38,152 bases of DNA, taken from the UHGV virus genome UHGV-1370838, one strand, 5' to 3'. This DNA is from a virus. The notes under the pieces are model-generated. The model was not told the DNA's origin and searched no databases. It worked only from the letters and a program-made list of their open reading frames with translations. Both the position numbers and the translations under genes were made by a program. This document shows, one piece after another, positions 1-38,152 of the stretch (positions are counted from its first letter, which is position 1; the number at the start of each line of letters is the position of its first letter).

Positions 1-25
1 AAATAATTAAAAACACAACACTTCC

Positions 26-12030: not shown

Positions 12031-12081
12031 CTTCTTTCTCCATTAGTGTGCCTGTTGCGGCCCACAGGTTAATAACAGGCG

Positions 12082-15974: not shown

Positions 15975-16042
15975 ATCAATGACTCCGTACGCAATTAAAT
16001 TATTACCAATTTAACCACATATGATTTATTTATCGTAGAAGG

Positions 16043-16079
16043 TTGACATTTAACGCGTGAATTATTACCTTTCAGGTAA
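16043..16079 (+). promoter_or_regulatory. -35-like TTGACA (16043-16048) followed by operator palindrome TTACCTTTCAGGTAA (16065-16079)
   Basis: Read directly; palindrome identical to the copy at 37304-37318. Confidence 0.45.
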
Positions 16080-16401
16080 CTAAAGAGCTCATTCTGGTTA
16101 CTAACCTGACTGGCTTGTCGTTAAATTAAACAGGTGGAGTGAGCTTTTATTTTGAGCAGTACGGCGTATGGCACATGCGCCGATAGCGGTCTGGATACGT
16201 TTAAGGGGCACCCTCCCTTGCTCGGGCAAACGAACCAGGTAGCCGGAATGTGCAAGTCGAGCGGTTTTATTCCGCGCACGGGGATTCACCATCCCGGCGA
16301 TTCGGTGTGACGCCTCGGAAGAGACGAGGGTACAACGATGAGAGCATTTATGGAGCCGCGACAAAGTGTGGCGCCTTAACAGGCTAAGTGCTCTCAGCGT
16401 T

Positions 16402-16478
16402 GTGGCATTAGCTCAGTCGGACAGAGCAACCGCCTTCTAAGCGGTTGGTCGCAGGTTCGAATCCTGCATGCCACGCCA
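16402..16478 (+). tRNA. tRNA-Arg (anticodon UCU)
   Basis: Cloverleaf folded by hand: acceptor GTGGCAT/ATGCCAC, D-stem GCTC/GAGC, anticodon stem ACCGC/GCGGT with loop CTTCTAA, T-stem GCAGG/CCTGC with TTCGAAT loop, discriminator G, encoded CCA. Confidence 0.9.
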
Positions 16479-16521
16479 GAATCACGCCTAAGGACCGTGA
16501 TGCCAGAAGTTCCAGGGGCTT

Positions 16522-16564
16522 GGCGGTGATGGTTTCCCTTGAAGGACTATCACCGCCCTTTTTA
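16522..16564 (+). terminator. intrinsic terminator downstream of tRNA
   Basis: GGCGGTGAT / ATCACCGCC stem with structured loop, followed by CTTTTT. Confidence 0.6.
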
Positions 16565-16641
16565 CAGCAGGACGCCATTGCGATGACTTCATGCTGTAAA
16601 CCCGTACAGCCACGGAAGGCATAACTCATTGCTTCCAGTTC

Positions 16642-16665
16642 GCCCGGTTCGCCGGGCATTTTTTT
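16642..16665 (+). terminator. hairpin GCCCGG-TTCG-CCGGGC plus T7 run, 11 nt upstream of next ATG
   Basis: Perfect 6-bp stem with TTCG tetraloop and ATTTTTTT. Confidence 0.65.
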
Positions 16666-18614: not shown

Positions 18615-19207
18615 TGATTACCATCCTGACGTTCTTTGAGTCGCTTCCTGGCTGCCGCTATGCGATCAGCAATTGTCACATTCACATTAACATCCAGGCG
18701 TTCTTTGAACGCGTTGACGTCGACGTGCTTACCAATCAGTTCGAGGTTCTTCACCTTGTCAGGCCATTTAATTTTTTTGAGGATTGTCTCTATCGAATCC
18801 TCGTTCATGTTCATGATGGTCGATGACAGATCAAAGCCACTAAGCGTAGTGCGCCAGATTTTCGGCCACTCGCGGATTGGCTTAAGGCTCCCATCGTCGT
18901 TGAGGATGTCGATCACGTCCATCTGGTCGATCTCCACCAGGCGCATGAGAACGTAATCAGCACTGACGCGCATTCGTTTGTTGCGCTCCTCCATCAACTC
19001 GGCAATCCGTTTTTGAATGCGTTCATCGCGCATCATGACACTGGCTTTAACTGCCGCTGTATTTGGGGAGAATCCTGCGTTAATCGCTGCCTGAGTCTGG
19101 TTTTCAGGCGTTTTGATGTATGACTGGCAATAAGCCTCCTGCATTGCTGTTAGTGGCTTAAATTGCGTTGATTTGCGTTTATAGGTTTTAGGTTCAGCAG
19201 GCATCAT
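18611..19207 (-). CDS. terS: terminase small subunit
   Basis: Start moved to the ATG ATG pair at 19202-19207; the longer ORF prefix is low-complexity Thr/Ile/Val translated from DNA repeats. Confidence 0.7.
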   Translation of the reverse strand: MMPAEPKTYKRKSTQFKPLTAMQEAYCQSYIKTPENQTQAAINAGFSPNTAAVKASVMMRDERIQKRIAELMEERNKRMRVSADYVLMRLVEIDQMDVIDILNDDGSLKPIREWPKIWRTTLSGFDLSSTIMNMNEDSIETILKKIKWPDKVKNLELIGKHVDVNAFKERLDVNVNVTIADRIAAARKRLKERQDGNQ

Positions 19208-19214
19208 AACCACC

Positions 19215-19246
19215 GTGGTAATAGTTACCGTTGTGGTAATAGTACC
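19215..19246. repeat. tandem GTGGTAATAGT(T)ACC repeats in terS leader
   Basis: Two copies at 19215-19229 and 19233-19246; GGTAA and TTACC half-sites in everted orientation. Confidence 0.5.
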
Positions 19247-22100: not shown

Positions 22101-22103
22101 GAT

Positions 22104-22180
22104 TTACCTCTAAGGTAATTAGAAACCACATAAGACACGAAATCAATAGATTTTAGAATGTTTTGTTACCTGATAGGTAA
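22104..22180. promoter_or_regulatory. two operator palindromes TTACCTCTAAGGTAA (22104-22118) and TTACCTGATAGGTAA (22166-22180)
   Basis: Perfect TTACC-N5-GGTAA copies, centres 62 bp apart, between P-like stop and DUF1064 start. Confidence 0.6.
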
Positions 22181-22217
22181 TTATTGAGACGTAAAAAAAT
22201 GCGCTATCGCGCTGGTA

Positions 22218-24031: not shown

Positions 24032-24111
24032 GGTAAGCCCTGTTATTAGTATTGGGATTACGGTTATTTTGTGCTGACACAAAAAAAAGATCAACCATAT
24101 TTGGTTTTTTA

Positions 24112-24126
24112 TTACCTTTGAGGTAC
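24112..24126. promoter_or_regulatory. operator-like palindrome TTACCTTTGAGGTAC (1 mismatch)
   Basis: Read directly, upstream of Zn-finger/O/P genes. Confidence 0.45.
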
Positions 24127-24131
24127 GAATA

Positions 24132-24181: not shown

Positions 24182-24412
24182 TCATGAGTAGAAGAAGTAT
24201 GCCAGTTCTGCTTTTGAGCGCAGCCATTGTCTTGATTTACAGGCTTTAAAAAGCCCATCCATCAATACCTTACCTGGCATTTTGCGCTTACCTGTTAAGT
24301 GAGTCTGGATATAGTGACTCGTCGTTCCGGCTTCCTGTGCGAAGGCTTCACGCTCATCCGGAGTAAGTGCAAGCCAGTGCTTTTTGAAATCGAAATGTCC
24401 GTTATCGCTCAT
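24182..24412 (-). CDS. Cro-like HTH regulator
   Basis: 76 aa; HTH segment TSHYIQTHLTGKRKMP; divergent from CI-like gene across operator cluster. Confidence 0.7.
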   Translation of the reverse strand: MSDNGHFDFKKHWLALTPDEREAFAQEAGTTSHYIQTHLTGKRKMPGKVLMDGLFKACKSRQWLRSKAELAYFFYS

Positions 24413-24437: not shown

Positions 24438-24511
24438 ATAATAAATATTCACCCATAAGGTAACAAAAATCAAGGATAGTTACCTATGGGGTGCATTTAC
24501 CTGTTGGGTAA
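24438..24511. promoter_or_regulatory. tripartite operator region between cro-like and CI-like genes
   Basis: Three operator copies at 24449-24463 (TCACCCATAAGGTAA), 24480-24494 (TTACCTATGGGGTGC), 24497-24511 (TTACCTGTTGGGTAA); minus-strand -10 TATTAT at 24438-24443 with -35 TTGTTA 17 bp upstream. Confidence 0.65.
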
Positions 24512-24566
24512 TATTGCTTTAAATTGAATCATCTACTGATTCATATATGAGGCGATTTTCCAGAAA

Positions 24567-25151
24567 ATGAAAAGTATCCAGGACGTCCGCAGGCAAAATC
24601 TCAACGACTTGATCGACCGTGAATTCAATGGTGTTCAGACGCGGATGGCAGAAAAACTTGGAACTCAGGCAAATCTGGTAAACCGCTGGGCTCTTGGCAA
24701 GAAGGTTATCGGCGACCAGGTTGCGCGAAAAATTGAAGCTGCCGCCAATAAACCCCGTAACTGGCTTGATATCGATCGCTCGCTTTCTCAGGAAGGTTTT
24801 CAGCCTGTCGGCCCAAGCGACATTGGTCAGCTGGCAGCTCACAACCTGGAACGCTGGATGAGTGAAAGCCGCGACCTTTCAACTCAGGGAAAACTTCACC
24901 GCGCATCCGGCGTCGCCCAGGTGACAATAAGCCGCCTGTTAAACAATGAGGTCAGCGTTTCCATTTCCACCCTGGAGAATGTTGCATCTGCATTCGGGCG
25001 TCACGGATATGAACTACTGATTCATCCGCATGACCCTGCGACCATCAACTATGATCGCTCGCGCTACGCATTGTTACCCGAAACCGAGAAAGCAAAGATC
25101 GAAAGTTACATTGAATTTGTCATCAACCAGAACGAAAAAAACAAACAATAA
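24567..25151 (+). CDS. CI-like prophage repressor with two HTH domains and no peptidase domain
   Basis: 194 aa; two XRE-type HTH segments (residues about 25-45 and 110-135); no Ser/Lys autopeptidase motif seen. Confidence 0.7.
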   Translation: MKSIQDVRRQNLNDLIDREFNGVQTRMAEKLGTQANLVNRWALGKKVIGDQVARKIEAAANKPRNWLDIDRSLSQEGFQPVGPSDIGQLAAHNLERWMSESRDLSTQGKLHRASGVAQVTISRLLNNEVSVSISTLENVASAFGRHGYELLIHPHDPATINYDRSRYALLPETEKAKIESYIEFVINQNEKNKQ

Positions 25152-25171
25152 AACCATATTTTTCAGTAAGT

Positions 25172-25196
25172 AAGCCGCCTTATGGCGGCTTTTTTA
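25172..25196 (+). terminator. intrinsic terminator after CI-like gene
   Basis: AAGCCGCC-TTAT-GGCGGCTT followed by TTTTTATT. Confidence 0.7.
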
Positions 25197-25208
25197 TTGC
25201 CTATTCGA

Positions 25209-25285
25209 TTACCTAACGGGTAATTTTTTTAACTCATATCTATTGACATCAAACCATATACGCATAATTATTACCTCAACGGTAA
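25209..25285 (+). promoter_or_regulatory. early-left promoter region with two operators
   Basis: TTACCTAACGGGTAA (25209-25223), -35 TTGACA (25243-25248), TTACCTCAACGGTAA (25271-25285) over the -10/+1 region; operator centres 62 bp apart. Confidence 0.6.
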
Positions 25286-25304
25286 CAGACCGAGGTAACA
25301 AGTT

Positions 25305-25457
25305 ATGCAGTGGAAAATCATCAACGGTTGGTACTGCGTTACTGCATGCGGATTCATGAGCTGGAAGTTCCGCACCTTACAGGAAGGCATTAAGTGGGCT
25401 TTCGTCAGCAAAGAAGCTCGCGATGTGGCCAACGATAACGAGATATGGGAGGGCTGA
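25305..25457 (+). CDS. small ORF, first gene of early-left operon
   Basis: 50 aa, not in the ORF track; ATG preceded by GAGGTAACAAGTT. Confidence 0.35.
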   Translation: MQWKIINGWYCVTACGFMSWKFRTLQEGIKWAFVSKEARDVANDNEIWEG

Positions 25458-25459
25458 TA

Positions 25460-25759
25460 ATGAACGTTAATCAGCAGAAAAATCTTCAAAAAATCATGCT
25501 GGCATTCGACAAGGACTACCGTCTGTCAGAACAGCTATATGACCGACAAGTTGAACTGATTGAGAGTATCCGGCTTCATCAACTGGCATCAACTTTCGAC
25601 GTTGTAACAGTTAAAGGCGTTCGCCAGGAAGTATTGGAGGCCGCTAAAGACAGCCCTGAGTTCGAAGAACTAATGGATGCCTACCGGCGCGAGGCAATGG
25701 CAATTATCGCCCGCTGGGATCTGGCTGATCAGCTTGATGGGCAGAGGGACGCGGCATGA
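25460..25759 (+). CDS. hypothetical early protein
   Basis: ATG with GGAGGG SD; directly upstream of the recombination pair. Confidence 0.5.
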   Translation: MNVNQQKNLQKIMLAFDKDYRLSEQLYDRQVELIESIRLHQLASTFDVVTVKGVRQEVLEAAKDSPEFEELMDAYRREAMAIIARWDLADQLDGQRDAA

Positions 25760-26577
25760 AACCGGGAATTTATTTCGACATCAGCAACGAAGACTACCAC
25801 GCCGGTGACGGCGTGAGTAAGTCGCAACTGGACATGGTTGCCAAGAATCCGGCGCTTCTTAAATGGGTTCAGGCAGCACCAGAAGACGAAGAGAAAAAGT
25901 CTGCACTGGATATGGGAACCGCATTGCACTGTCTGCTTCTGGAGCCTGGAGAGTTCGACAAACGCTTCATTGTTTCACCGAAATTCGATCGTCGGACGAA
26001 ACAAGGTAAAGCTGACGAAGAGGAATTTCTTCGTGATGTGGCGGATATGGGGATTACGGTACTTGATGCCGAGCAGTGGCGGAAACTGGAGCTGATGCGT
26101 GATAGCGCAATGGCTCACCCGGCGGCACGCTGGATGCTGGAAGCACCTGGTTACTGCGAAGCATCAATGTACTGGAACGATGAAGAGACGGGGGAGTTGT
26201 GCCGAATTCGTCCAGACAAATGGCTGAACGAGCACAACGTGATCGTCGACGTGAAAAAGGTTGCAGATATGGACCGTTTTGCACGCCACATCGAGGAATT
26301 CCGCTACCACGTGCAGGACGCAATGTACCGCGAAGGCGCAATGAGGGTTACTGGTCAGCCGCATGGTTTTTTCTTTCTTGCCGTGAGCGAAAGCATTGAT
26401 TGTGGTCGGTATCCGGTACGCGTGTTCGAGCTGGATGCGCAGGATGTCGATGCCGGGCACGCTCTGTTCCGCCGGGATCTGAATACCTATCACGAATGCC
26501 GCATCAATGATGAATGGGGCGGTGTGGAAATCATTAAACGCCCTGAGTGGGCACGCAAACAGGATATGTACATATGA
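25756..26577 (+). CDS. recombination exonuclease (RecE/YqaJ-like PD-(D/E)xK)
   Basis: 273 aa; D...VDVKK catalytic-like motif; translationally coupled to RecT-like gene. Confidence 0.65.
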   Translation: MKPGIYFDISNEDYHAGDGVSKSQLDMVAKNPALLKWVQAAPEDEEKKSALDMGTALHCLLLEPGEFDKRFIVSPKFDRRTKQGKADEEEFLRDVADMGITVLDAEQWRKLELMRDSAMAHPAARWMLEAPGYCEASMYWNDEETGELCRIRPDKWLNEHNVIVDVKKVADMDRFARHIEEFRYHVQDAMYREGAMRVTGQPHGFFFLAVSESIDCGRYPVRVFELDAQDVDAGHALFRRDLNTYHECRINDEWGGVEIIKRPEWARKQDMYI

Positions 26578-27515
26578 GCAACGACATCGCAAACATCAAC
26601 GCACCAGTAGACACAGCAATCGCTGGAACTGCTGCAACTATTTTCAGCCCAGACGGCTTGAACCAACTGATGAAATTCGCCGAGGTAATGGCGCAAAGCC
26701 GCGTAACGGTACCGGCGCACCTCGCCGGGAAACCAGCTGATTGCATGGCCGTGGCAATGCAGGCTGCGCAGTGGGGAATGAACCCGTTTGCCGTGGCTCA
26801 GAAAACCCATGTTGTGAACGGCACGCTAGGTTATGAAGCCCAATTAGTAAACGCAGTTATCTCAACGATGTCGCCAACAAAAGATCGCATCAACTACGAG
26901 TGGTTCGGGCCGTGGGAACGCGTGATCGGTAAGTTTGTTGAGAAAACATCCAAAAACGGCAATCCATATATCGCACCAGGCTGGACTCTAAAAGACGAAG
27001 AAGGCTGCGGTGTTCGCGTATGGGCAACCATGAAGGGCGAGGATCAACCTCGAGTGCTTGAGTTAATGCTGTCTCAAGCACAGGTAAGAAACTCCACACT
27101 TTGGGCCAGTGATCCGAAACAACAACTCGCATACCTTGCGACAAAACGCTGGTCTCGCCTGCACTGTCCTGACGTAATCATGGGCGTCTACACCCCAGAC
27201 GAATTACAGGAAACGGCACCGCGCGTTGAGCGAGACATTACTCCGCAAACGACCACTGCTGCGGGAATGAACAGTCTGATCAACGCTAAACCAGCGAAAA
27301 AGCCTGATGAGCAAACGCGTAAATCGGACAGCCGTGATCCAGAAGAAATGCTGATGGCCTTTACCAGCGCAGCGATGAATTACAGCACTGTCTCCGAACT
27401 GGATAAGGCTTACAAATACATTGCACAAAAACTTTCAGATGATGACGAACTGCTGGCAAAAGCAACCGACGTTTACAGCGTTCGTCGGGAAGAATTAAAC
27501 GAAACATCTATGTAA
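26574..27515 (+). CDS. recT: RecT/Bet-family single-strand annealing protein
   Basis: ATG overlaps upstream stop (ATGA); C-terminal ERDITPQ segment resembles lambda Bet as recalled. Confidence 0.7.
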   Translation: MSNDIANINAPVDTAIAGTAATIFSPDGLNQLMKFAEVMAQSRVTVPAHLAGKPADCMAVAMQAAQWGMNPFAVAQKTHVVNGTLGYEAQLVNAVISTMSPTKDRINYEWFGPWERVIGKFVEKTSKNGNPYIAPGWTLKDEEGCGVRVWATMKGEDQPRVLELMLSQAQVRNSTLWASDPKQQLAYLATKRWSRLHCPDVIMGVYTPDELQETAPRVERDITPQTTTAAGMNSLINAKPAKKPDEQTRKSDSRDPEEMLMAFTSAAMNYSTVSELDKAYKYIAQKLSDDDELLAKATDVYSVRREELNETSM

Positions 27516-27564
27516 CCACCACCGCGGCGCCACGTGCGCCGCACTGCAACCAAGAGAGGTATTC

Positions 27565-27813
27565 ATGAAAGGTGCATTAGGTAAGAAAGAACTCCTGGCG
27601 GTGGTGCCACTGTCATGGAGCACTATCGACCGTATGGAGCGCGCAGGGGAATTTCCTAAACGCTGGTATATCACCGATAAACGCTGCGCATGGAACCGTG
27701 ATGAAGTTGAGCGTTGGCTTGATGAACGTCAGGCAGCAAGCCCGGCAGAGTTCCAGGGTAAAAAGCCTCCTGTTCAGCAACGTGTATATCGTCCCGTGAG
27801 CAACGCTGCATGA
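27565..27813 (+). CDS. AlpA/excisionase-like HTH protein
   Basis: 82 aa; LSWSTIDRMERAGEFPKRWYITDKRCAWNRDEVERWL is typical of AlpA/Xis-type HTH. Confidence 0.7.
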   Translation: MKGALGKKELLAVVPLSWSTIDRMERAGEFPKRWYITDKRCAWNRDEVERWLDERQAASPAEFQGKKPPVQQRVYRPVSNAA

Positions 27814-27922
27814 GTGCGCTGCTAAGGCACTGGAGCAAATGGTCAGGATGGTACTTATTCCTGGCCTCTGTTTCAGCATGGCTTTATCTGCTGGCATTAA
27901 TTTTCAGAGAGGGTTGGATTAA

Positions 27923-28222
27923 GTGAGAAAGTTAAGCCGACTTGAAAAATATCACATGAATAAGGTTTCAATGCGCAGTCCGTCAAAGATTGTCGCCGTT
28001 ACTCCTGCGGCGATAGAGATCGAAAAACGCGCGATTGAAAGAGAGAAAAAAGGGCAATTCCGCATTGCCGCTCACCTTTGGCTTCAGTGTATGGATGTTG
28101 CTTCTGGTGATGTTGAACGTGCAAGGATCGCGGTTCGCAGGGACCAATGTATCACAAAAGGTAACGGCCTTCGCCGTGGCGACTATAGCGGCATAGGATG
28201 TTGTGGGGTGGTTTATGACTAA
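27923..28222 (+). CDS. small regulatory-like protein (possibly ANR family)
   Basis: AIEREKKGQFRIAAHLWLQ pattern; start uncertain (GTG 27923 or ATG 27974). Confidence 0.4.
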   Translation: MRKLSRLEKYHMNKVSMRSPSKIVAVTPAAIEIEKRAIEREKKGQFRIAAHLWLQCMDVASGDVERARIAVRRDQCITKGNGLRRGDYSGIGCCGVVYD

Positions 28223-28865
28223 GAAATACACACTAATCTATGCAGATCCACCCTGGGTATACCGGGACAAAGCCGCGGATGGTAATCGCGGTGCCGGTTT
28301 TAAATATCCGGTTATGAGTGTGCTGGATATTTGCCGCCTTCCTGTGTGGGATTTGGCCGATGAAAACTGTCTGTTGGCCATGTGGTGGGTGCCAACACAA
28401 CCACTCGAAGCACTAAAAGTTGTTGAAGCCTGGGGATTCCGTCTGATGACCATGAAGGGCTTCACGTGGATAAAATGTGGTAGTCGACAACCAGATAAAC
28501 TGGTTATGGGTATGGGACACATGACTCGCGCCAATAGTGAAGATTGCCTGTTTGCAGTAAAGGGAAAACTACCTCCACGCATTAATGCAGGGATCGTTCA
28601 GTCATTTACCGCACCGCGGCTTGAGCATTCAAGAAAACCAGATGTCGTTCGTGAAAAACTTGTGCAATTGTTAGGCGATGTTTCTCGCATTGAACTGTTC
28701 GCCCGCCAGTCGTCTCATGGTTTCGATGTTTGGGGTAATCAGTGCGAAGACCCGGCAGTGCAACTACATCCTGGATACGCGTTGGATATTGGCGGATTAA
28801 CAAATGCATTCAGCAATGCTCCGCTGTCACCAACAGACAACCAGGGGCGGGAGCGTGCAGCATGA
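28215..28865 (+). CDS. MT-A70 family N6-adenine DNA methyltransferase
   Basis: IYADPPW catalytic motif near N-terminus; ATG at 28215 with GGGGTGG SD. Confidence 0.8.
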
Positions 28866-29521
28866 ACCTATATCAACGCATCAATGGCGCTGACTGGTGC
28901 AATATCTTCGTCGTCGGCGATCTGCATGGGTGCTACACGCTGCTGATGAACGAACTCGACAAAGTTTCATTCGACCCGGCGCGCGATTTGCTTATTTCCG
29001 TTGGTGACCTTGTTGACCGCGGCGCTGAAAACGTCGAATGCCTGGATTTGATTACTATGCCGTGGTTCCGAGCTGTTCGTGGCAACCATGAGCAGATGAT
29101 GCTGGATGCACTGGTCAACGGCGGAAGTTTCGGACATTGGATGTCAAACGGCGGTGGATGGTGGCACCAACTTGATTCTGAGCAGGATGTGCAACTCAAA
29201 TACCTTCTGCCAAAGGTTACCAACCTCCCGATGATTATCGAACTGGTTACCGGCAATAAGAAGGTCGTCATCTGCCACGCAGACTACCCGCACAACGAAT
29301 ACGCATTCGATAAGCCAGTACCGGAAGAAATGGTGATATGGAATCGTGAGCGGGTTAGCGACGCGCAGGACGGTATTGTCTCGGAGATAACCGGTGCCGA
29401 TTTGTTCATCTTCGGTCATACGCCAGCACATCACCCACTGGTGTATGCAAACCAAATGTACATCGACACCGGCGCAGTGTTCTGCGGAAATCTGACGCTT
29501 ACCAAAGTCCAGGAAGGATAG
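28862..29521 (+). CDS. Ser/Thr protein phosphatase (lambda phosphatase-like metallophosphoesterase)
   Basis: GDLHG, GDLVDRG and GNHE metallophosphatase motifs; ATGA overlap with the methyltransferase. Confidence 0.8.
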
Positions 29522-29523
29522 AA

Positions 29524-30780
29524 TTATTTATTACTGTCTTCCATCCACCTCTCAAACTTCGACGGGGAGAACGGAATCAGATCCGTATGCTCCCCGTTAA
29601 TCCAGGAATCAATCATATCGGCCCACTGCTGCAACATGTAGGCGCGCTGTCTGGCGTATTCCGCTTTGTTATATACGGCGCGCACACCTTTCTGCTCATG
29701 TGCCAGAGCCTTTTCAATCCAGTCTGAAGGATAACCAGCCTCATGCAACAACGTACTGGCTGTACGGCGCATATCGTGTACGGTGAAGCCCTGAATATGC
29801 TCACCATCTTCATTTATTATTTTCACCGTTCTGTCGATCAGAGAGTTCAGCGCGGCATTAGATAATGGCTTCCGGAAATTGTAACGACCAGGAACCAGAT
29901 ATTCACTTCCACCAGCGCACATCTGCAACCCGACCAATATATCCTGAGCCTGTTTAGGCAGGTAAATAACGTGCGCCCGGCTTCCCTTCATGCGGTCTGA
30001 AGGAATTGTCCATGTCCATTTTTTAAAATCTATTTCATCCCACGTTGCGTTGGTGAATTCGCCTTTACGAACCATAGTGATAAGCACCAGCTTTAAAGCC
30101 ATTTTCATAGTGCCCATAGCACCAATGGCATCCAGCGTGCGGAAGAACAGGCCAATTTCTTCTGGTGTCAGTGTTCGCTCTCTTGGTTTAAATATGGCGA
30201 TAGACGAAGGTTTAATGTCAGCCGCAGGATTAAACAAACCATGACCACGGTCATTGGCGTGACGGTATACGCTGCTGATGATCTCCCTTGCCTGTACTGC
30301 TGTTGCCCGACCACCGCGTTCGACAATCCGGTCACACAAATCACGAACCATCGATGTGGTAATTTCAGTCATCATTTTGTTGCCAAGAACTGGAAGTATG
30401 TCACGGTCGATCACCGCCTGCTTCATTGCGCGGGTACTGTCAGCCAGGATGACGTGTTTCATATAACTGTCGGTATGTACCGTAAACGTCTCGGCACCAT
30501 GAATCTTTTTGATACCGTCACGTTTAGCCGCAGCCGGTGACTGGCCTGCTTTAAGCAGCTTCTTTGCAGCAATCAGTTCTTCTCGCGCTTCTGCCAGGCT
30601 GATACCGTCACGCCCATACTGCCCGATTACCAGTGTTTCGCGGCGACCGTTGATACGGTAGTCATAGCGAAACGAGACCGTGCCTGACGTAAGCACAGCT
30701 ACATACAGCCCGTCACGATCGGAGACCTTGTACAGTTTGTCCTGCGGCTTGAGGTTTTTTAATTTTGTATCGGTAAGCAC
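29524..30780 (-). CDS. int: tyrosine integrase (P4-like family)
   Basis: 418 aa; P4-type N-terminal arm-binding domain pattern and C-terminal catalytic domain; GTG start. Confidence 0.9.
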   Translation of the reverse strand: MLTDTKLKNLKPQDKLYKVSDRDGLYVAVLTSGTVSFRYDYRINGRRETLVIGQYGRDGISLAEAREELIAAKKLLKAGQSPAAAKRDGIKKIHGAETFTVHTDSYMKHVILADSTRAMKQAVIDRDILPVLGNKMMTEITTSMVRDLCDRIVERGGRATAVQAREIISSVYRHANDRGHGLFNPAADIKPSSIAIFKPRERTLTPEEIGLFFRTLDAIGAMGTMKMALKLVLITMVRKGEFTNATWDEIDFKKWTWTIPSDRMKGSRAHVIYLPKQAQDILVGLQMCAGGSEYLVPGRYNFRKPLSNAALNSLIDRTVKIINEDGEHIQGFTVHDMRRTASTLLHEAGYPSDWIEKALAHEQKGVRAVYNKAEYARQRAYMLQQWADMIDSWINGEHTDLIPFSPSKFERWMEDSNK

Positions 30781-30822
30781 AATTCACCCGTATAGAAACC
30801 ATTTTCATGACGGTATGAGAGT

Positions 30823-30837
30823 ATACCTTTAAGGTAA
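30823..30837. promoter_or_regulatory. operator-like palindrome ATACCTTTAAGGTAA (1 mismatch) upstream of int
   Basis: 43 bp upstream of int start; nested inside inverted repeat GACGGTAT...ATACCGTC. Confidence 0.45.
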
Positions 30838-30892
30838 TACCGTCACCTGTACCGCAGAAAAATATGGTGTAGAGTGAATAGAAATGAATACA

Positions 30893-30926
30893 TAAAAACA
30901 AAAACCCTCTGTAAAAACAGAGGGTT
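30893..30926 (-). terminator. intrinsic terminator ending the lysis operon
   Basis: AACCCTCTG-TAAAAA-CAGAGGGTT perfect 9-bp stem; minus-strand T-run TTTGTTTTT. Confidence 0.75.
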
Positions 30927-30979
30927 AAATTAGTATCTGAATAGGAATGAGTTGCTATGAGTTAGCTGTTAATCATTCC

Positions 30980-31016
30980 CACTCAATTATTTACGGACAC
31001 CATAACCAATTGAGTG
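30980..31016. repeat. 9-bp inverted repeat CACTCAATT / AATTGAGTG with 19-bp spacer (attP-region candidate)
   Basis: Read directly, in the noncoding stretch between int and lysis genes. Confidence 0.3.
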
Positions 31017-31097
31017 ATAACATTTTTCCAAAGATGAATTTTTCCCGTACCGTTTTATATACCGTCACCGGAAATCAGTACCATGAAAAATGCCATG

Positions 31098-31580
31098 CTA
31101 TCTGGTCAGGGTGTCGTACTGTTTTTCGCAGACTCTTCCGGCTTCGGCTGCCCGGTCAGCATACTCTGCCAGTTGTCTGTTTCTCTCGAGAGATTTGCTG
31201 AGCACGTCGGCAAGCAAAACTCCGGTATCTGCGGCTGACGACCCAGCGCCGACAATGGCGTTATAGTGCCTGAGCTGCTCACGGATGGCAACGAGCTGTT
31301 GCTGCAACCGGCCAGCGCGAGCGGCAGCATCAAGAGCATCATTGCGCGCCTGGTCGATCCTCTGCTGCGCTTCACGTTCATTGATCGATTTCTCCTGTTC
31401 GTAGTGCTGACGAACTCTCTCATCTTCGGTTTTGCGGTCTTCTTTCGCCTGTGCATACCCGGCGTCGTACTGACGACTGCCGTGCACATTCCAGGCAACA
31501 ACTCCTGATATGACCAGAACAGCAAGCACCGCCATGATAATCAACTGATTACGGTATGCTTTTACGAATGCCCAGATCAT
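31098..31580 (-). CDS. i-spanin (Rz-like)
   Basis: N-terminal TM segment then Gln/Arg/Ala-rich coiled coil; last gene of lysis cassette. Confidence 0.65.
31106..31381 (-). CDS. o-spanin (Rz1-like lipoprotein) nested in +1 frame
   Basis: Signal peptide with lipobox LAGC; Pro-rich mature part; start uncertain (31381 or 31342). Confidence 0.5.
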   Translation of the reverse strand: MNVKRSRGSTRRAMMLLMLPLALAGCSNSSLPSVSSSGTITPLSALGRQPQIPEFCLPTCSANLSRETDNWQSMLTGQPKPEESAKNSTTP

Positions 31581-32206
31581 ACGGCCAGCACCTTACTGGC
31601 AGTAACGTACCGCGCGCGCCGGTCGTCGATGCCGTTCCGGCCACCATTGATAATCAGAGTTACACGTGCAATATCTCCGGGATACTTCATGCAGCCTTTG
31701 CTGGAGAAGAACCACGCCGCGCTACGAGCCGCGTATTCGTCCTGCGTCAACAGCTCAGGATTCTCCAGCAGGTCCACTTTTAGACCGTTTCCGCAGTCAC
31801 GATAGTTATTCAAACCGGTAATCTGGATAAGCCCGCGCCCACGGTAAAACCAGCCGTCAGTCGGCCCGTTGTTCCCCATGCGCTTGCTATACACCAGATT
31901 GGCGATCGCACGCTGGCGCTCCAGCGGTAACGATGGCTCACCAGCACGACGGCCCAGCGCGTTGGCCTGGCCCTGAGTGAGGCGCCCGGCACGGACGAAT
32001 CCCGCCAGCCCAGTCACGCTGTAGTTGAAGTTCTCCTGCAGCCGGGTGAAGCCTCCAGACTCATGCCCGACCTGAGCAATAAACATTGCCTGATCTTCTG
32101 GTTTGCTGATACCAAACTCTTTCATCGCAGAAGTTATATGCGAGAACCAGCGTGCGGCCAGCGCCTCGCTAATACCAGCAGCTCGCTGGAATTGTTTAAT
32201 CTCCAT
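31577..32206 (-). CDS. endolysin, glycoside hydrolase family 19-like
   Basis: [16 protein letters not shown]-type GH19 motif; GAGG SD. Confidence 0.8.
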
Positions 32207-32504
32207 GTTTAGACCTCGTTATTTTGAAAATCTGAACGACGTTACCGCGAGTTTTAAGAACCGCAGCAAGCATGACAGCGTTGATAATGACCTCAGATAA
32301 ATCCACAGCCATTGGCGTGCGTAACCAGATTGCATAGACGACACGAACAGGAATACTGGCCGCAGCAACAATAAGGAAATAAGCAAGCCACCCTCCCCAC
32401 CTTCGATGTTGTGAACCGTTACGCCGGAATGTGACAACACGAATTGCTATGCCAGTACAAATAAGTGCATTGGTGATAAGCAAAACAAGCTCATTAGTTA
32501 CCAT
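32196..32504 (-). CDS. holin/antiholin-like membrane protein
   Basis: 102 aa with about 3 TM segments; between holin and endolysin. Confidence 0.55.
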
Positions 32505-32895
32505 CGCCTTTTCTCCCCGGAATTAACTCGCGTGGATTATCGGAACGGTGATAGAGCCAGATGCCAATTCGAACTGCAACGATTGCTGACACGAATGCAC
32601 CAGCAGAGAAAACAATCCCTTTCTCGAAAGAGTCCTGCGTGATGGTAGGGATCAGGCTGGCTATGCCGATAAGAATTGATGCTGCTGGTTTATAGAAAAG
32701 AAGTCCGCAGAGAAAGCTAAGCATCGATAAGAGTACGCGACGATGAATTGGGTACTCTACCGCAGAGGTAACAAAAATTACCGCACCAGCAAGAGCACCT
32801 AAAGCCACCTCAGGCGGTATACCAACGAACACGGACGCCAGTGCAGTCAGGCTTAACCCCTGATTTACTGACTCTGTTGTCAGCACATGCGCCAT
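32494..32895 (-). CDS. holin-like membrane protein
   Basis: ATG at 32893-32895 with GGTGG SD; multiple TM segments; first gene of lysis cassette. Confidence 0.6.
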   Translation of the reverse strand: MAHVLTTESVNQGLSLTALASVFVGIPPEVALGALAGAVIFVTSAVEYPIHRRVLLSMLSFLCGLLFYKPAASILIGIASLIPTITQDSFEKGIVFSAGAFVSAIVAVRIGIWLYHRSDNPRELIPGRKGDGN

Positions 32896-33000
32896 AGTGA
32901 CCACCGTTTATTGTGCATAAAGAACCCCCTTAGTTGGTGAGTTCATCATACACAATAAACCATATGTGGATTAATTTTGATCGGATAACTCTTAACGAAA

Positions 33001-33015
33001 TTACCCTAAAGGTGA
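33001..33015. promoter_or_regulatory. operator-like palindrome TTACCCTAAAGGTGA (1 mismatch)
   Basis: In divergent region between holin and acetyltransferase. Confidence 0.4.
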
Positions 33016-33051
33016 TATCATTAACGCATCTTACTCAAAACGATAGCGATT

Positions 33052-34911
33052 ATGTCTTCTTTAAAATACAGAACTGATATAGGCGGACTCAGGGCTATTG
33101 CTGTCATGGCAGTTGTCCTTTATCACTTCGGAGTCAAAGGGTTTTCTGGTGGGTTTTCAGGAGTAGATATATTCTTTGTTATATCAGGGTATCTGATGAC
33201 TGGAATAATTTACACAAAGATAGAAAATGAAAACTTTTCACTGTTAGGATTTTATCTTGATAGGGCAAGAAGGATTATACCTGCTTTAACTGTAGTTTCA
33301 GTTGCTGTTCTGATAGTTGGTTACTTCATTCTTTTACCTTCTGAATATGAATACCTGGCTCAACACGTAAGAAGTAGCCTTTTATTTTTCTCAAACGTTG
33401 AGTATTACCATAGCATTGATTATTTTGATACTGCATCAAAGCAGAAATGGCTTCTTCATACATGGTCGCTTTCTGTAGAGTGGCAGTTTTACATGGTATA
33501 TCCAATCATAATGATGGTAATTGCAAAGCTATTGGGCGCTAAGCATATAAGGTATGTTGTTGCCATCCTTGCAATTATATCATTTACTGCCTCAGTGTAT
33601 CTTTCTTATAATAATCAGGGGGCTGCATTTTATCTTCTGTCAAGCAGAGCTTGGGAGATGCTGGCTGGCGGCCTTGCCTACCTTCTTCCTACTATACAAA
33701 ATTCAAAACGCACTGCTGTATTTAGATGGATTGCCATAGCCTTTGCAGTATCGGGGATAGTCTTGCTTAACAGCTTAATGAAGTGGCCTGGGTATCTTGC
33801 CTTAATACCAGTCGTTTCTACTTTCTTTGTCATTTATCTTGGATGTAAAGATAACCTGTTACTTGATAATGCATTATCTCAATGGGTTGGGAAAATTTCA
33901 TACTCGGTATATCTGGTTCACTGGCCCATAGTTGTCTATATGTCAATGAATAAGATGGATGATATGGTTTATACAGTATCAGGTGTTGCCTTATCAATTC
34001 TTATTGGTGCCGCATCATTTTATTTAATTGAAAACCCTTCAAGAAAGGCACTTTCAAAATTTAAAAACGGCAGGTCCTTGAATGAATTAACTTTAATCGT
34101 GCTACCTGTAGGTGGTGTAGTTGGTTTGTGCTTCGCTGTACTATTGCTATCTGGAATTCCATCAAGGTTTTCGTTTGTCACAATGACGTCCGAACAGCTA
34201 AAAGAACAAATGAACAGGTATTGGGTTGATGGAGACAAGCCTCACCCTGTACCGAAGACAGGTGACAAAAAAATAGTAATAATCGGTAATTCTCATGGCA
34301 TAGATCTGACTTATGCACTTACTGAAAATGGGATGAAGGGTGATATAACTTATATAAGAACTACAAACTTATGTTCAAACTTTGGTTATACACCAAACGA
34401 CATGCCCTATGTAGAAAAGTGCAAAAAAATATTCAATGACGTGATCTCATCTCCAGCCATAGCTGAAGCTAACATTATAATCCTTCATGATGATTATGGC
34501 GTTGGCGATCTGTTCGGGATGCTTTACTCTATAGGCAAAATACAGGAGAGGACTAAAGGAGAAGTTATTGTATTTGGGCCTAAGATGAAGTTTACGGCAC
34601 AGCCAATGGAAATAATTAAGTCTGCTTTTAAATCTGGCGTAAACACAGTTGATGGGATAAATAAATACTCTAAAAAGTATTATGACAATAGTAGAGTTGA
34701 AATTAACAATACGATAAAAGGCTATCTTGGTAGCAACCAGCATTCGTATAAATACATAGATACGCTTGCCGAGCAGTGCGGAAAGTCAATGAATTGTGAC
34801 ATCCTTTCTACTAAAGGTGATTATCTTTACTTTGACAATAGTCATTTCACTCTAGAAGGCTCAAGGGAGTTTGGGAAAAAATTAAAAAATGACAAGCCAT
34901 TTATTTTTTAA
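33052..34911 (+). CDS. O-antigen acetyltransferase (acyltransferase-3 membrane domain fused to SGNH-like domain, OafA/Oac-type)
   Basis: 619 aa; N-terminal GGLRAIAV...LYHF motif and about 10 TM segments; C-terminal soluble domain with GNSH; visibly AT-rich versus flanks. Confidence 0.85.
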   Translation: MSSLKYRTDIGGLRAIAVMAVVLYHFGVKGFSGGFSGVDIFFVISGYLMTGIIYTKIENENFSLLGFYLDRARRIIPALTVVSVAVLIVGYFILLPSEYEYLAQHVRSSLLFFSNVEYYHSIDYFDTASKQKWLLHTWSLSVEWQFYMVYPIIMMVIAKLLGAKHIRYVVAILAIISFTASVYLSYNNQGAAFYLLSSRAWEMLAGGLAYLLPTIQNSKRTAVFRWIAIAFAVSGIVLLNSLMKWPGYLALIPVVSTFFVIYLGCKDNLLLDNALSQWVGKISYSVYLVHWPIVVYMSMNKMDDMVYTVSGVALSILIGAASFYLIENPSRKALSKFKNGRSLNELTLIVLPVGGVVGLCFAVLLLSGIPSRFSFVTMTSEQLKEQMNRYWVDGDKPHPVPKTGDKKIVIIGNSHGIDLTYALTENGMKGDITYIRTTNLCSNFGYTPNDMPYVEKCKKIFNDVISSPAIAEANIIILHDDYGVGDLFGMLYSIGKIQERTKGEVIVFGPKMKFTAQPMEIIKSAFKSGVNTVDGINKYSKKYYDNSRVEINNTIKGYLGSNQHSYKYIDTLAEQCGKSMNCDILSTKGDYLYFDNSHFTLEGSREFGKKLKNDKPFIF

Positions 34912-34919
34912 TTGATGAT

Positions 34920-34936
34920 GGGGAGCATTGCTCCCC
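34920..34936. other. hairpin GGGGAGC-ATT-GCTCCCC between convergent genes
   Basis: Perfect 7-bp stem; no U-tract on either strand. Confidence 0.4.
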
Positions 34937-34946
34937 ACGCATAACA

Positions 34947-37199
34947 TCAACCTATTTTAGTGTAAGTCCAGTTAAATGTTGCCGCGCCCTGACTTGTTAC
35001 CGCTACATTCCTTCCCGATGAAGAAAATGTTATGAATGCTCCGGCTTTTAATGGCGTTAGAGTTAATGAGCCATCATACATCGCTAGTTGTGTAGAAGAG
35101 TAGTTTGTGCCGCCGCCAGAACCCCATACACTAATGAGATACATCCCCTGCATATCAGGCAATGCAAACAATGTTGTTTCGGTGTTGGCATTTACGGATT
35201 GTGTTCCTTTTGCGGTGTAGAAACCAGGTGTCTGTAGCCCCGTTGATGATACTTGTTGAGTGTAACCGCCAGAAACAGTACCAGATATCGGGGTGCAGAA
35301 CCAGTTAACGTTACCCTGACTAACTACTGATAAAACCGGGGAGCCGCCTGCAGGCGCGCGCCAACGACCGCTGTACACGTCAATTCGGGATGTTGTGTCC
35401 TTAGCGTATAACGTAATAGGGTATCCACCAGTCCCGGAGTAAGGGATTGCGCTATCAGACAAGTCATCCTCAGAAGAATCGATTATAACCTGACTTGTCC
35501 CGGATGCCTTTATGAAAGAAACGACACCACTTGCCGCCGGGGCTACAGTTTTTAACTGATTTTGCCCTGCTGTGAGCCCGGATATTTTGCCATTAGTATT
35601 CTCAAAATGGAAAAGAGTTGCATCCCCACTACCATCTGTGGAAATTATATTTCCTTCCGCATCAAATCCCACAATGTTAACGCTGTGTGAGTTAATGAAA
35701 TGGACACCTGCTCCGCCGAATGAACCACCAGAAAGTGTAATGCTTGATTGGTCCATAGCGCAGTTGAGCATAGTTACAGACATAACGGCGCCAAATTGAT
35801 AAGGCGAGACGCATCCGGATGCGTAGCAAGTCTCCATCAAAATGGTCGTACCAAGCGCCTTAATAAAGCCGTCGTGGCAATTCCGCGCCCATACGTTTTG
35901 CAACTTAGTAAGGTAAGTTCCGGTGGCGTCGTAGAAACAGCGCCATGCACCATGTACTGTGCAGTTTTTAATCTCAGACATTTCAAGACCAGTAGTACCG
36001 GCTTCAGTGGAATAGAAATTAAATGCTATCTTCCCACCATCATCTTCAGGATTCGTTGGTGTGGTTCCTGGATCATAGAAAATATAAAGACCATCAATAA
36101 AAATCTGAATCATTTTTGTCGATAGGGAATCACCTTGATCTAAAGCAAAGGCTGATATATTCCCAACAATTGACATGAAAGACTGAGAACGGTTTATTGC
36201 ATCAGTCCCTTCACCAACAATTCTGACTGAATTATTAAATATAATTGTGGCATTATAATATCCAAGACCTTTTGGGATTAGCACCTTTTTACCAGTATTA
36301 CATGCGGCCTGCAGCGCCGCATAATCCAACGATTGCGTGAGAGACGTAACAAATGGATATACCATCTGAGCAGCTGATAGTGTTGAAAATATCTCGCTTA
36401 AAGGGTGAAGCGTTCCGTCAATTGTCGCTCCAAAATCAACAACACTAATGGCTTGTGCATTTTTTATATGCTGCGAAAGAGAAATTGCCCCCTGGTAAGG
36501 CTGCTTCACTGTTATCAGCGCATCACCTTTCCCGTCAGCGCTGCTGGCCAACTGGTTGAATACGTCCGCCGCCGTTCCTGAAGGCACAGGGAAAGGAACA
36601 GGCTTCCCGTTTTGAATGCCGATAATGCTGCCTTCAAGCTGAGCGAGTGGTGGCAGCGGATCGATATAAGCGTCAGGAACTCGGATGGTATGGTTGATGT
36701 TCGATAAAGCCGTGCTGTCCACATAATTCTTTGTGGCTGCATCCTGCGGGTTAACCGGGTCTTTCAGGTTCCGAATATAGTTGTTCAGCGCGTTATAATA
36801 ATTTGCTACGAATGACGGCTTGCGCAGCGCCAAGCTAAACCAACTTCGAACCTGCTGGATCAGCATCGTTAGCTTATCAAAAGCATCCTCATGCACTTCT
36901 GCAAAGAACTTACCCTGATTACGCAAATCAGTTTCCTGCGTAACCGGGAGGTCTCGTGATATAGAAATCTGATAACCGTTAGCTAACGCCTTCGACAGAA
37001 TTACATTACCGCCATTATATCCACCAGCCCCAGTGACAGTGTAATCAGTATCAAGAGCCAGCACAGCGATATTTTCGTCAAGGTCAACCACCTGTACTAC
37101 CAGATCAGATTCCTTGAAAACCCTAAAGGTATACGGAAATGATGTCGTAACGCCGTTACCTGTGTATTCGTTGTGGTCAACTTCGGTTGAGACCGTCAT
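34947..37199 (-). CDS. tailspike / tail fibre protein
   Basis: 750 aa; N-terminal particle-binding-type domain; Gly/Ser/Thr-rich beta-helix-like body; GGAG SD. Confidence 0.8.
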   Translation of the reverse strand: MTVSTEVDHNEYTGNGVTTSFPYTFRVFKESDLVVQVVDLDENIAVLALDTDYTVTGAGGYNGGNVILSKALANGYQISISRDLPVTQETDLRNQGKFFAEVHEDAFDKLTMLIQQVRSWFSLALRKPSFVANYYNALNNYIRNLKDPVNPQDAATKNYVDSTALSNINHTIRVPDAYIDPLPPLAQLEGSIIGIQNGKPVPFPVPSGTAADVFNQLASSADGKGDALITVKQPYQGAISLSQHIKNAQAISVVDFGATIDGTLHPLSEIFSTLSAAQMVYPFVTSLTQSLDYAALQAACNTGKKVLIPKGLGYYNATIIFNNSVRIVGEGTDAINRSQSFMSIVGNISAFALDQGDSLSTKMIQIFIDGLYIFYDPGTTPTNPEDDGGKIAFNFYSTEAGTTGLEMSEIKNCTVHGAWRCFYDATGTYLTKLQNVWARNCHDGFIKALGTTILMETCYASGCVSPYQFGAVMSVTMLNCAMDQSSITLSGGSFGGAGVHFINSHSVNIVGFDAEGNIISTDGSGDATLFHFENTNGKISGLTAGQNQLKTVAPAASGVVSFIKASGTSQVIIDSSEDDLSDSAIPYSGTGGYPITLYAKDTTSRIDVYSGRWRAPAGGSPVLSVVSQGNVNWFCTPISGTVSGGYTQQVSSTGLQTPGFYTAKGTQSVNANTETTLFALPDMQGMYLISVWGSGGGTNYSSTQLAMYDGSLTLTPLKAGAFITFSSSGRNVAVTSQGAATFNWTYTKIG

Positions 37200-37303
37200 G
37201 TTAAATCTCCAGATAGTCGCAGCACCCGTTGCGCCGCATATCTGGTTATTCTATTACCTGAAAAACCATATATGGATAGAAAGGCTGTAAATACGAATAG
37301 ATA

Positions 37304-37318
37304 TTACCTTTCAGGTAA
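37304..37318. promoter_or_regulatory. operator palindrome TTACCTTTCAGGTAA
   Basis: Perfect copy between tailspike start and the LexA-box gene. Confidence 0.55.
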
Positions 37319-37355
37319 TTTGCAAAACGTGCTGGATAGCAAACAAATTATTTGC

Positions 37356-37375
37356 TACTGTATAAATATACAGTT
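37356..37375 (+). promoter_or_regulatory. LexA (SOS) box TACTGTATAAATATACAGTT
   Basis: CTGT-N8-ACAG with AT-rich spacer, perfect dyad; immediately upstream of 37381/37396 ORF. Confidence 0.75.
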
Positions 37376-37395
37376 ATTGCATGGAGAAGATTAAG

Positions 37396-37653
37396 ATGCA
37401 GCAGTATCACTATCCACTGGAAGACGGATTTACCGAAAGGATTCACACGCCGGGAGGCGTCAGGTCACTGGTGGAGGGATCGCACTTGATGAAATTACTC
37501 CGGGATCTCGATAAGGATGGATTTAATGTCGATGGCCCACTTGCCGAACTGACTGCACTGATTAACTACGTCACCAGCTCACAGATGTCTATGCGGGATC
37601 TGCAAACACATCTCGACTATTGTGCCGAACAATTACGAAAACAAACCCGGTAA
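37396..37653 (+). CDS. SOS-regulated small protein, candidate antirepressor
   Basis: ATG at 37396 has GGAG SD (37381 ATG lacks one); 85-90 aa; LexA box overlaps its promoter. Confidence 0.5.
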   Translation: MQQYHYPLEDGFTERIHTPGGVRSLVEGSHLMKLLRDLDKDGFNVDGPLAELTALINYVTSSQMSMRDLQTHLDYCAEQLRKQTR

Positions 37654-37677
37654 ATTTAAAGGCCGCAAGAGCGGCCT

Positions 37678-37689
37678 GTGACATGTCAC
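37678..37689. repeat. perfect 12-bp palindrome GTGACATGTCAC (copy 3 of 3)
   Basis: 25 bp after stop of 37381-37653; preceded by hairpin GGCCGC-AAGA-GCGGCC. Confidence 0.8.
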
Positions 37690-37982
37690 GCTCTTTTTCT
37701 GAATGATAGCCATTCGAAAAATGATGACATTCCACCGCAGACAATAGCAAAGATGATCCCACCAAAGAAGAGAAGGCCAGCCTGCCACCACTCCCACCGC
37801 CATACATCCACAGCGCCAACCATACCAACAATCGCTCCAACAAATGGAATATAGCTCACGATGAAAGCAATGGGGGCTGCAATTATCCAGTGCAATCCCC
37901 ACCATGATTCAAGCCCAGCCATAATTGCTGCCAACTGAAAAAGACCAACGACGATATAAACAATGAATCCTATAGCTTGCAT
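37686..37982 (-). CDS. small Trp-rich integral membrane protein
   Basis: 98 aa; about 3 TM segments; AGGTGA SD. Confidence 0.55.
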   Translation of the reverse strand: MQAIGFIVYIVVGLFQLAAIMAGLESWWGLHWIIAAPIAFIVSYIPFVGAIVGMVGAVDVWRWEWWQAGLLFFGGIIFAIVCGGMSSFFEWLSFRKRA

Positions 37983-37993
37983 GTAGTCACCTA

Positions 37994-38152
37994 TTTACCC
38001 AGTAAAAATCAGAGGCCTCCCCTCAATAAGGCTTGCAACAAGAACTATTCCCTGCACAACAAAGATGAACCAGCAAATAGCTTGAGTCTGAGGGTTAAGA
38101 AAATATTTGTAGCGGTCAATAAATAACAACCCACCAGAAATTATCACACTCA
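37994..38152 (-). CDS. partial hydrophobic ORF running off the right edge
   Basis: Open minus-strand frame ending ...LIEGRPLIFTG; start lies outside the window. Confidence 0.3.

Follow-up and report, generated by a model that had tools for sequence, protein, structure and literature searches.

The window analysed here, the whole 38,152-nucleotide stretch of UHGV virus genome UHGV-1370838, encodes a 194-amino-acid (aa) lysogeny repressor, Rep, and an 85-aa antirepressor, Ant, which very probably form the phiV10-lineage ortholog of the Rep-Ant antirepression switch of Salmonella phage SPC32H. Both proteins are homologous to chains of a single crystal complex, the hetero-octamer of PDB entry 5D50, which holds SPC32H Rep and Ant, and the SPC32H GenBank record names the corresponding genes rep and ant. 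An earlier note, made from the letters of the window alone, had proposed that a small antirepressor, itself under LexA repression, inactivates an uncleavable repressor. This proposal is supported by the homology of both proteins to the 5D50 chains, because it ties them to a system, that of SPC32H, in which the switch was demonstrated. The switch is already known, having been published and structurally solved in a congeneric phage; the earlier idea was right but is not new. The sequence features on which it drew were all present, at positions that agreed exactly or to within 1-2 nucleotides (nt). The analysis covered protein homology, the absence of an S24 peptidase domain, the strength, uniqueness and conservation of a LexA box, gene order, and the set of Rep operators.

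Rep is a full-length homolog of the SPC32H repressor

The repressor gene and the three domains assigned to its product by alignment to the solved homolog are as follows.

24567..25151, + strand: rep, 194-aa lysogeny repressor, SPC32H Rep ortholog (open reading frame and 5D50_A match)
24567-24782, + strand: DNA-binding helix-turn-helix (HTH) domain of Rep, aa 1-72
24831-25022, + strand: middle HTH_3-like dimerisation domain of Rep, aa 89-152
25023-25136, + strand: C-terminal tetramerisation and Ant-binding domain of Rep, aa 153-190

A phmmer search of the PDB aligned residues 1-190 of Rep to residues 2-197 of 5D50_A, labelled 'Repressor' (E 4e-42, 42% identity), and the C-terminal half of the protein also matched 5D4Z (E 4e-20). 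SPC32H Rep binds DNA through its N-terminal domain and dimerises through its middle domain; its C-terminal domain, which is p53-like, serves for both tetramerisation and Ant binding (PMC9986798). Identity to SPC32H Rep was 53% in the DNA-binding domain, 34% in the middle domain and 47% in the C-terminal domain. Across five family members 69 columns were invariant; they are spread over all three domains, with 14 in the C-terminal domain. Rep is 100% identical to the phiV10 repressor and to ORF21 of phage ZX5, overexpression of which abolished free phage and lowered endolysin and holin transcripts by >99.9% (PMC9782041).

The Pfam scan of Rep returned HTH-type domains only, namely HTH_3 in two stretches (best at residues 106-147, E 1.2e-9) and a YdaS-like HTH at residues 21-61. 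The two HTH segments that had been described for the 24567-25151 protein were therefore found, and the term 'dual HTH' holds for two HTH-like segments but not for two DNA-binding units: the second HTH-like region is the dimerisation domain in the solved homolog and hence not a second DNA reader. The repressor had also been predicted to lack an S24 peptidase. A profile search, the check proposed for this point, bore the prediction out, with no match to Peptidase_S24 (PF00717) in the Pfam scan of Rep even at E ≤ 1. Repressors of the lambda CI and LexA-like type carry an S24 domain with a Ser/Lys dyad, which Rep does not share. As Rep has no LexA-like autopeptidase domain, activated RecA (RecA*) would be unable to inactivate it directly; Rep presumably escapes RecA-stimulated cleavage.

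Ant is the ortholog of the SPC32H antirepressor

The ant gene and the control elements immediately before it occupy the following positions.

37356..37375, + strand: LexA (SOS) box TACTGTATAAATATACAGTT, 18/20 to the consensus TACTGTATATATATACAGTA, overlapping the candidate ant core promoter
37383..37386, + strand: Shine-Dalgarno sequence GGAG of ant, 9 nt upstream of the ATG at 37396, invariant in an alignment of ten phages
37396..37653, + strand: ant, 85-aa antirepressor, SPC32H Ant ortholog (5D50_E match, phrog_450)

Ant matched PDB chain 5D50_E ('Anti-repressor protein') with an E of 1.4e-46, and was 86.7% identical to SPC32H ant (KC911856) by tblastn. The ATG at 37396 agrees with the annotated ant start in SPC32H; a longer reading from the ATG at 37381 was rejected, being without a Shine-Dalgarno sequence. 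Searched against PHROG, Pfam, NCBIfam and the PDB, Ant matched phrog_450, phrog_15539 and, weakly, the C-terminal part of phrog_1760, besides SPC32H Ant; neither Pfam nor NCBIfam has a model that covers it. No match in these four databases was labelled Tum, the Tum and Gifsy sequences themselves not having been compared directly.

The proposed likeness to the Gifsy and phage 186 Tum systems holds as a functional analogy, whereas the homologous system is SPC32H Rep-Ant. The antirepressors of Gifsy-1, Gifsy-3 and Fels-2 (Lemire et al. 2011) and Tum of coliphage 186 follow the same logic, with a LexA-repressed small antirepressor set against an uncleaved repressor, but these phages are siphoviruses and myoviruses, and Ant differs in acting by disassembly of the Rep tetramer via the C-terminal domain. 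Kim and Ryu reportedly described SPC32H Ant in 2013 as structurally distinct from the Gifsy, Fels-2 and Tum antirepressors.

The correspondence with SPC32H (Kim & Ryu 2013, J Virol 87:11775; Kim et al. 2016, PNAS 113:E2480; PDB 5D50, 5D4Z), which belongs to the same genus, Uetakevirus, extends beyond the homology of both proteins over their full length. The gene order is the same, with the tailspike gene divergent from ant and rep beside a cro-like gene with flanking operators; the operator consensus ATTACC-N5-GGTAAT is shared; and a LexA box lies at the same aligned position. The differences are that the host here is E. coli, that Ant is one N-terminal residue shorter, and that the module downstream of ant is another one, being represented here by an oppositely oriented gene for a 98-aa membrane protein.

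Rep and Ant co-occurred in the same 35 phage records. Ant identity was 78-99% across Escherichia, Salmonella and Enterobacter phages and 60-65% in Klebsiella phages, while Rep identity falls to 42-45%. Such strongly unequal divergence of the two proteins would fit an Ant that works across immunity types (prophage cross-talk), or else two modules that were exchanged independently.

A conserved LexA box precedes ant

The near-consensus LexA box that had been reported at 37356-37375 was confirmed. Its CTGT-N8-ACAG core lies at 37358-37373, and both mismatches of TACTGTATAAATATACAGTT fall at non-core positions. It is the sole 20-mer in the window within three mismatches of the E. coli LexA consensus, and none of 100 shuffled sequences contained any. 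Two further occurrences of CTGT-N8-ACAG, at 12052 and 16594, were rejected as LexA boxes on account of GC-rich spacers and more than three mismatches to the 20-mer. The box lies 22 nt before the ant ATG, a spacing (21-22 nt) shared with SPC32H.

The tailspike-ant intergenic region was aligned for ten Uetakeviruses, namely the window, phiV10, SPC32H, SPC32N, epsilon15, Tyrion, BUCT554 and three Klebsiella phages, with hosts in Escherichia, Salmonella, Enterobacter and Klebsiella. The LexA box, a Rep operator, the Shine-Dalgarno sequence and the ATG aligned in register in all ten, and the order tailspike (-)/ant (+) was kept throughout. In the Klebsiella phages the left arm of the box reads ATGT, not CTGT. 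Over the aligned region of ~219 nt, the constitutively lytic SPC32N departs from SPC32H at one base, C>A, which falls within the ACAG arm of the LexA box. This natural mutation underlies the conclusion reportedly drawn by Kim and Ryu in 2013 that Ant becomes constitutive once LexA binding is lost, and the C>A change matches that phenotype. Occupancy of the box by LexA would be expected by homology with SPC32H.

Proposed switch and other routes of induction

In the SPC32H system the self-cleavage of LexA allows Ant to be produced, and Ant inactivates the repressor through direct protein contact (PMC7380047). The DNA-bound form of Rep is a tetramer, which falls apart when an Ant tetramer engages two Rep dimers (PMC9638917). 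By homology, Rep in a lysogen of the present phage would keep the lytic genes off by occupying operators that flank its own gene or lie at several further promoters, and host LexA, seated on the SOS box over the ant core promoter, would keep ant off. DNA damage would lead to LexA self-cleavage and so to transcription of ant. We infer that tetrameric Ant would then bind the C-terminal domains of Rep and convert the Rep tetramer into dimers, and that Rep would be released from operator DNA, allowing lytic growth. In line with this account, a DNA-damaging microcin gave 21-fold and 47-fold induction of prophages of the phiV10 species (bioRxiv 10.64898/2026.05.26.727859).

Three points weigh against this account. 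A strict sigma-70 scan of 37150-37750 gave no promoter at the LexA box or ant. A looser weight-matrix scan gave three weak candidates, which all overlap the LexA box and keep their position in only some of the phages. The earlier placing of the box directly on the ant promoter thus stands as far as the overlap with these three candidates goes but was not reproduced by the strict scan, and the placing is suggested by position and by the SPC32H literature. Secondly, Rep is 42-43% identical to SPC32H Rep as against 86-87% for Ant, and binding between this particular Rep and Ant is predicted from the homolog. Thirdly, the sole study of an E. coli phage tested a protein of the Bro-N type, and not the small Ant (PMC9782041).

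The Bro-N proteins bear on a second account, in which Ant is SOS-induced but is not the inducer of this phage, for example because the diverged Rep no longer binds Ant, and induction takes another route. In relatives of the window a Bro-N protein is encoded just downstream of ant on the same strand, and its C-terminal ~75 residues are 40-43% identical to nearly the whole of Ant. These so-called anti-repressors are two-domain proteins with an N-terminal Bro-N domain; the genes, with positions given after the label of each locus, are as follows.

L014:2674-3366: ZX5 ORF4, Bro-N::Ant-like
L005:2073-2774: Tyrion gp20, Bro-N::Ant-like
L015:4906-5601: TL-2011b gene, Bro-N::Ant-like
L004:2071-2652: phiV10 p23, Bro-N::Ant-like, truncated inside the Ant-like domain

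Overexpression of ZX5 ORF4 favoured lytic growth (PMC9782041), probably because of its Ant-like C-terminal domain, the last 75 residues being 43% identical to Ant. No extra LexA box was found before the Bro-N::Ant genes of the relatives; each locus has one box, at ant.

The lytic effect of a Bro-N protein with an Ant-like domain in ZX5, together with the fall of Rep to 42% identity where Ant still shows 87%, would suit another route of induction. No second Ant-like gene and no Bro-N gene was found in the circularised window, however; all examined members of the genus have both Rep and Ant and preserve the LexA box; and the Ant-binding C-terminal domain of Rep retains its 14 invariant positions across the family. 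An inducer other than Ant is accordingly highly improbable. Classical lambda-type induction, with Rep cleaved after RecA activation and ant an accessory, is scarcely credible, as it has nothing in its favour beyond the general prevalence of the mechanism, the S24 domain was not found at E ≤ 1, the C-terminal half of Rep aligns to the oligomerisation domains of 5D50 and 5D4Z, and the homolog is described as inactivated by Ant and not by cleavage (PMC7380047, PMC9638917).

Rep operators are dispersed around the genome

The operator motif is the 17-bp sequence ATTACC-N5-GGTAAT. With up to one mismatch allowed in the core TTACC-N5-GGTAA, 14 operators were found in the window against 0.54 expected, a number reached by none of 100 shuffles. 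Most are intergenic, and four flank rep. The operators located by the motif scan, which carry no strand unless one is given, are listed below with the elements that they adjoin.

16064..16080: operator upstream of the portal/head operon
19206-19222 and 19224-19240: operators before terS
22103-22119 and 22165-22181: operators in the replication region
24111-24127: dispersed operator
24182..24412, - strand: cro-like small regulator, divergent from rep (phrog_35 transcriptional repressor, E 8.7e-13)
24448-24464 (TTCACCCATAAGGTAAC) and 24496-24512 (TTTACCTGTTGGGTAAT): operator pair between rep and the cro-like gene
25172..25191, + strand: rho-independent terminator after rep
25208-25224 (perfect) and 25270-25286, + strand: operator pair around the early promoter
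25243-25271, + strand: early promoter TTGACA-17-AATTAT of the exo/recT early operon
30822-30838: operator at the int/attP side
33000-33016: operator just upstream of the O-antigen acetylase moron (33052-34911)
37303..37319: perfect operator ATTACCTTTCAGGTAAT between tailspike (-) and ant (+), conserved in ten phages

At the early promoter, which is well defined, an operator overlaps the -10 element, and both SPC32H and epsilon15 have equivalent perfect operators downstream of rep. The cro-like gene is placed as are SPC32H_042 and epsilon15 gp39. In the record of Salmonella phage epsilon15 (AY150271.2; Kropinski et al. 2007), repressor-binding sites are likewise scattered, seven being annotated. 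The positions of the dispersed operators suggest that Rep may directly control late and conversion genes. The operators at 16064 and 37303 were considered as parts of a longer repeat, which was rejected since the alignment between them covers the 17-bp operator only.

The operator between tailspike and ant

The epsilon15 record annotates the operator homologous to 37303-37319 as a repressor protein_bind feature, beside gp19, the Ant ortholog, with an adjacent site for integration host factor (IHF). It also notes the similarity of the gp38 repressor to 5D50_A, but gp19 is labelled hypothetical and the LexA box is unannotated. Although genuine and conserved, the 37303-37319 operator is already known from this record. 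A second element on its tailspike side emerged from the alignment of the ten phages.

37253..37258: invariant ATTACC half-site, tailspike side, putative Rep contact

In each of the ten phages exactly 50 bp separate the half-site from the full operator, although the spacer has diverged. The half-site is contained in a conserved block, TCTATTACC...AACC.TATATG.AT at ~37250-37283, which on the minus strand reads GGTAATAGAAT and includes a -10-like TAGAAT. Measured from centre to centre, the operator and the LexA box are 54.5 bp apart in seven phages; in the three Klebsiella phages the distance is 53.5 bp. Towards ant, the operator ends at least 13 nt upstream of the leftmost candidate -35 and overlaps no candidate core promoter element. 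The earlier note had taken this operator as a second layer of control beside the LexA box. The copy is present and perfect, but a second layer on ant was not established, the operator lying upstream of the core promoter with its spacing fixed to the tailspike side.

One tentative possibility is that the operator serves the divergent late promoter of the tailspike gene, leaving ant under LexA alone. A Rep tetramer might bridge the operator and the half-site over an IHF-bent spacer and so occlude the -10-like TAGAAT. The strict 50-bp spacing and the invariant block point in this direction, as do the IHF site annotated between operator and half-site in epsilon15 and the single operators that precede other late operons (portal, terS). 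The proposed tailspike promoter has no good -35, however, and the half-site is only half an operator.

It is more doubtful that Rep at 37303-37319 also represses the ant promoter. In such an arrangement the loss of LexA would yield a trickle of Ant, which would remove Rep from the ant region and set up a positive feedback, giving a sharp and committed switch. A perfect operator does lie beside ant in all ten phages, at a nearly fixed distance from the LexA box, and tetrameric Rep with two DNA-binding pairs could loop DNA. The operator is nevertheless clear of the candidate ant core promoters, unlike that at the early promoter, and its spacing to the LexA box shifts by 1 bp in the Klebsiella lineage whereas that to the half-site is kept at 50 bp in all ten. 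A strong Rep lock on ant would also block induction in a lysogen filled with Rep. Because the operator stands off the ant core promoters and has a fixed 50-bp spacing on the tailspike side, control of the tailspike promoter may be somewhat likelier than a second lock on ant, and the two would be compatible with each other.

A broader idea, which we regard as unlikely, is that Ant is a near-universal cross-acting inducer for the genus, its fold reused in the Bro-N C-termini, and that a single Rep tetramer, by way of the operator, IHF site and half-site, ties the repression of late genes to the output of ant. If true, this coupling of late genes and ant by Rep would be a feedback not described for SPC32H.

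Genome context and neighbouring features

The immunity region was 97-98% identical to those of Escherichia phages vB_EcoP_PAS61, phiV10, ZX5 and others. Judged by its sequence, the window is a phiV10-like phage and belongs to Uetakevirus, the genus of temperate podoviruses that resemble epsilon15. For phiV10, epsilon15 and ZX5 the reported attP core is ATTGAGTGGGAATGATT (PMC9782041), and this core is unbroken at 30971-30987, between the integrase and lysis genes. The ends of the window (1-30 and 38120-38152) meet as the homologous SPC32H genes adjoin, with a gp17-like gene (26-2500, - strand) on one side and a small membrane-protein gene (37995-38147, - strand) on the other; no terminal direct repeat was found in the window. 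Since the ends join as in SPC32H and attP is intact, the window looks like a complete or nearly complete, circularly permuted, non-integrated phage genome. Integration would place rep ~6 kb from one end of the prophage and ant ~6.5 kb from the opposite end, the two being ~25 kb apart, and the description of ant as lying on the other side of the genome from rep is fair in view of that distance.

Downstream of ant, the following features were noted.

37660..37677: GC-rich hairpin (terminator) between the convergent ant and membrane-protein genes
37686-37982, - strand: gene for a 98-aa predicted membrane protein, convergent on ant (phrog_3075, weak holin-like Pfam match)

The membrane-protein gene occupies the site at which relatives carry an ash/Bro-N antirepressor module or other cargo, and its position looks like a variable moron slot.

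In the region of the late operon, a tRNA gene and an overlapping open reading frame were observed near the operator at 16064.

16402-16478, + strand: tRNA-Arg(UCU) gene, antisense to the late operon (ARAGORN; Rfam tRNA 73 bits)
16408-16659, - strand: 83-aa open reading frame, phrog_4647, overlapping tRNA-Arg and possibly spurious

Upstream of the tRNA gene is a + strand TTGACA (16041-16046), and the -10 position that goes with it overlaps the operator at 16064. A GC-rich non-coding stretch of ~270 nt before the tRNA gene (16130-16400) had no match in Rfam.

Annotation and occurrence of ant in E. coli

The ant region (37200-37660 of the window) was present in 531 of the 5426 complete E. coli genomes; identity was mostly 95-99%, with one match of 100%, in strain FT130. 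Among the matches listed, it was labelled 'hypothetical protein' in every row. In 2022 an antirepressor was sought in the near-identical E. coli phage ZX5, and only the Bro-N protein was tested (PMC9782041); in the ZX5 GenBank record the Ant ortholog is a hypothetical protein. The practical value of the present finding therefore lies in annotation, and the mechanistic gain is very little. PhiV10-type prophages bring an O-antigen acetylase gene with them and occur commonly in pathogenic E. coli; an ant gene with a LexA box would account for their response to DNA-damaging antibiotics and bacteriocins.

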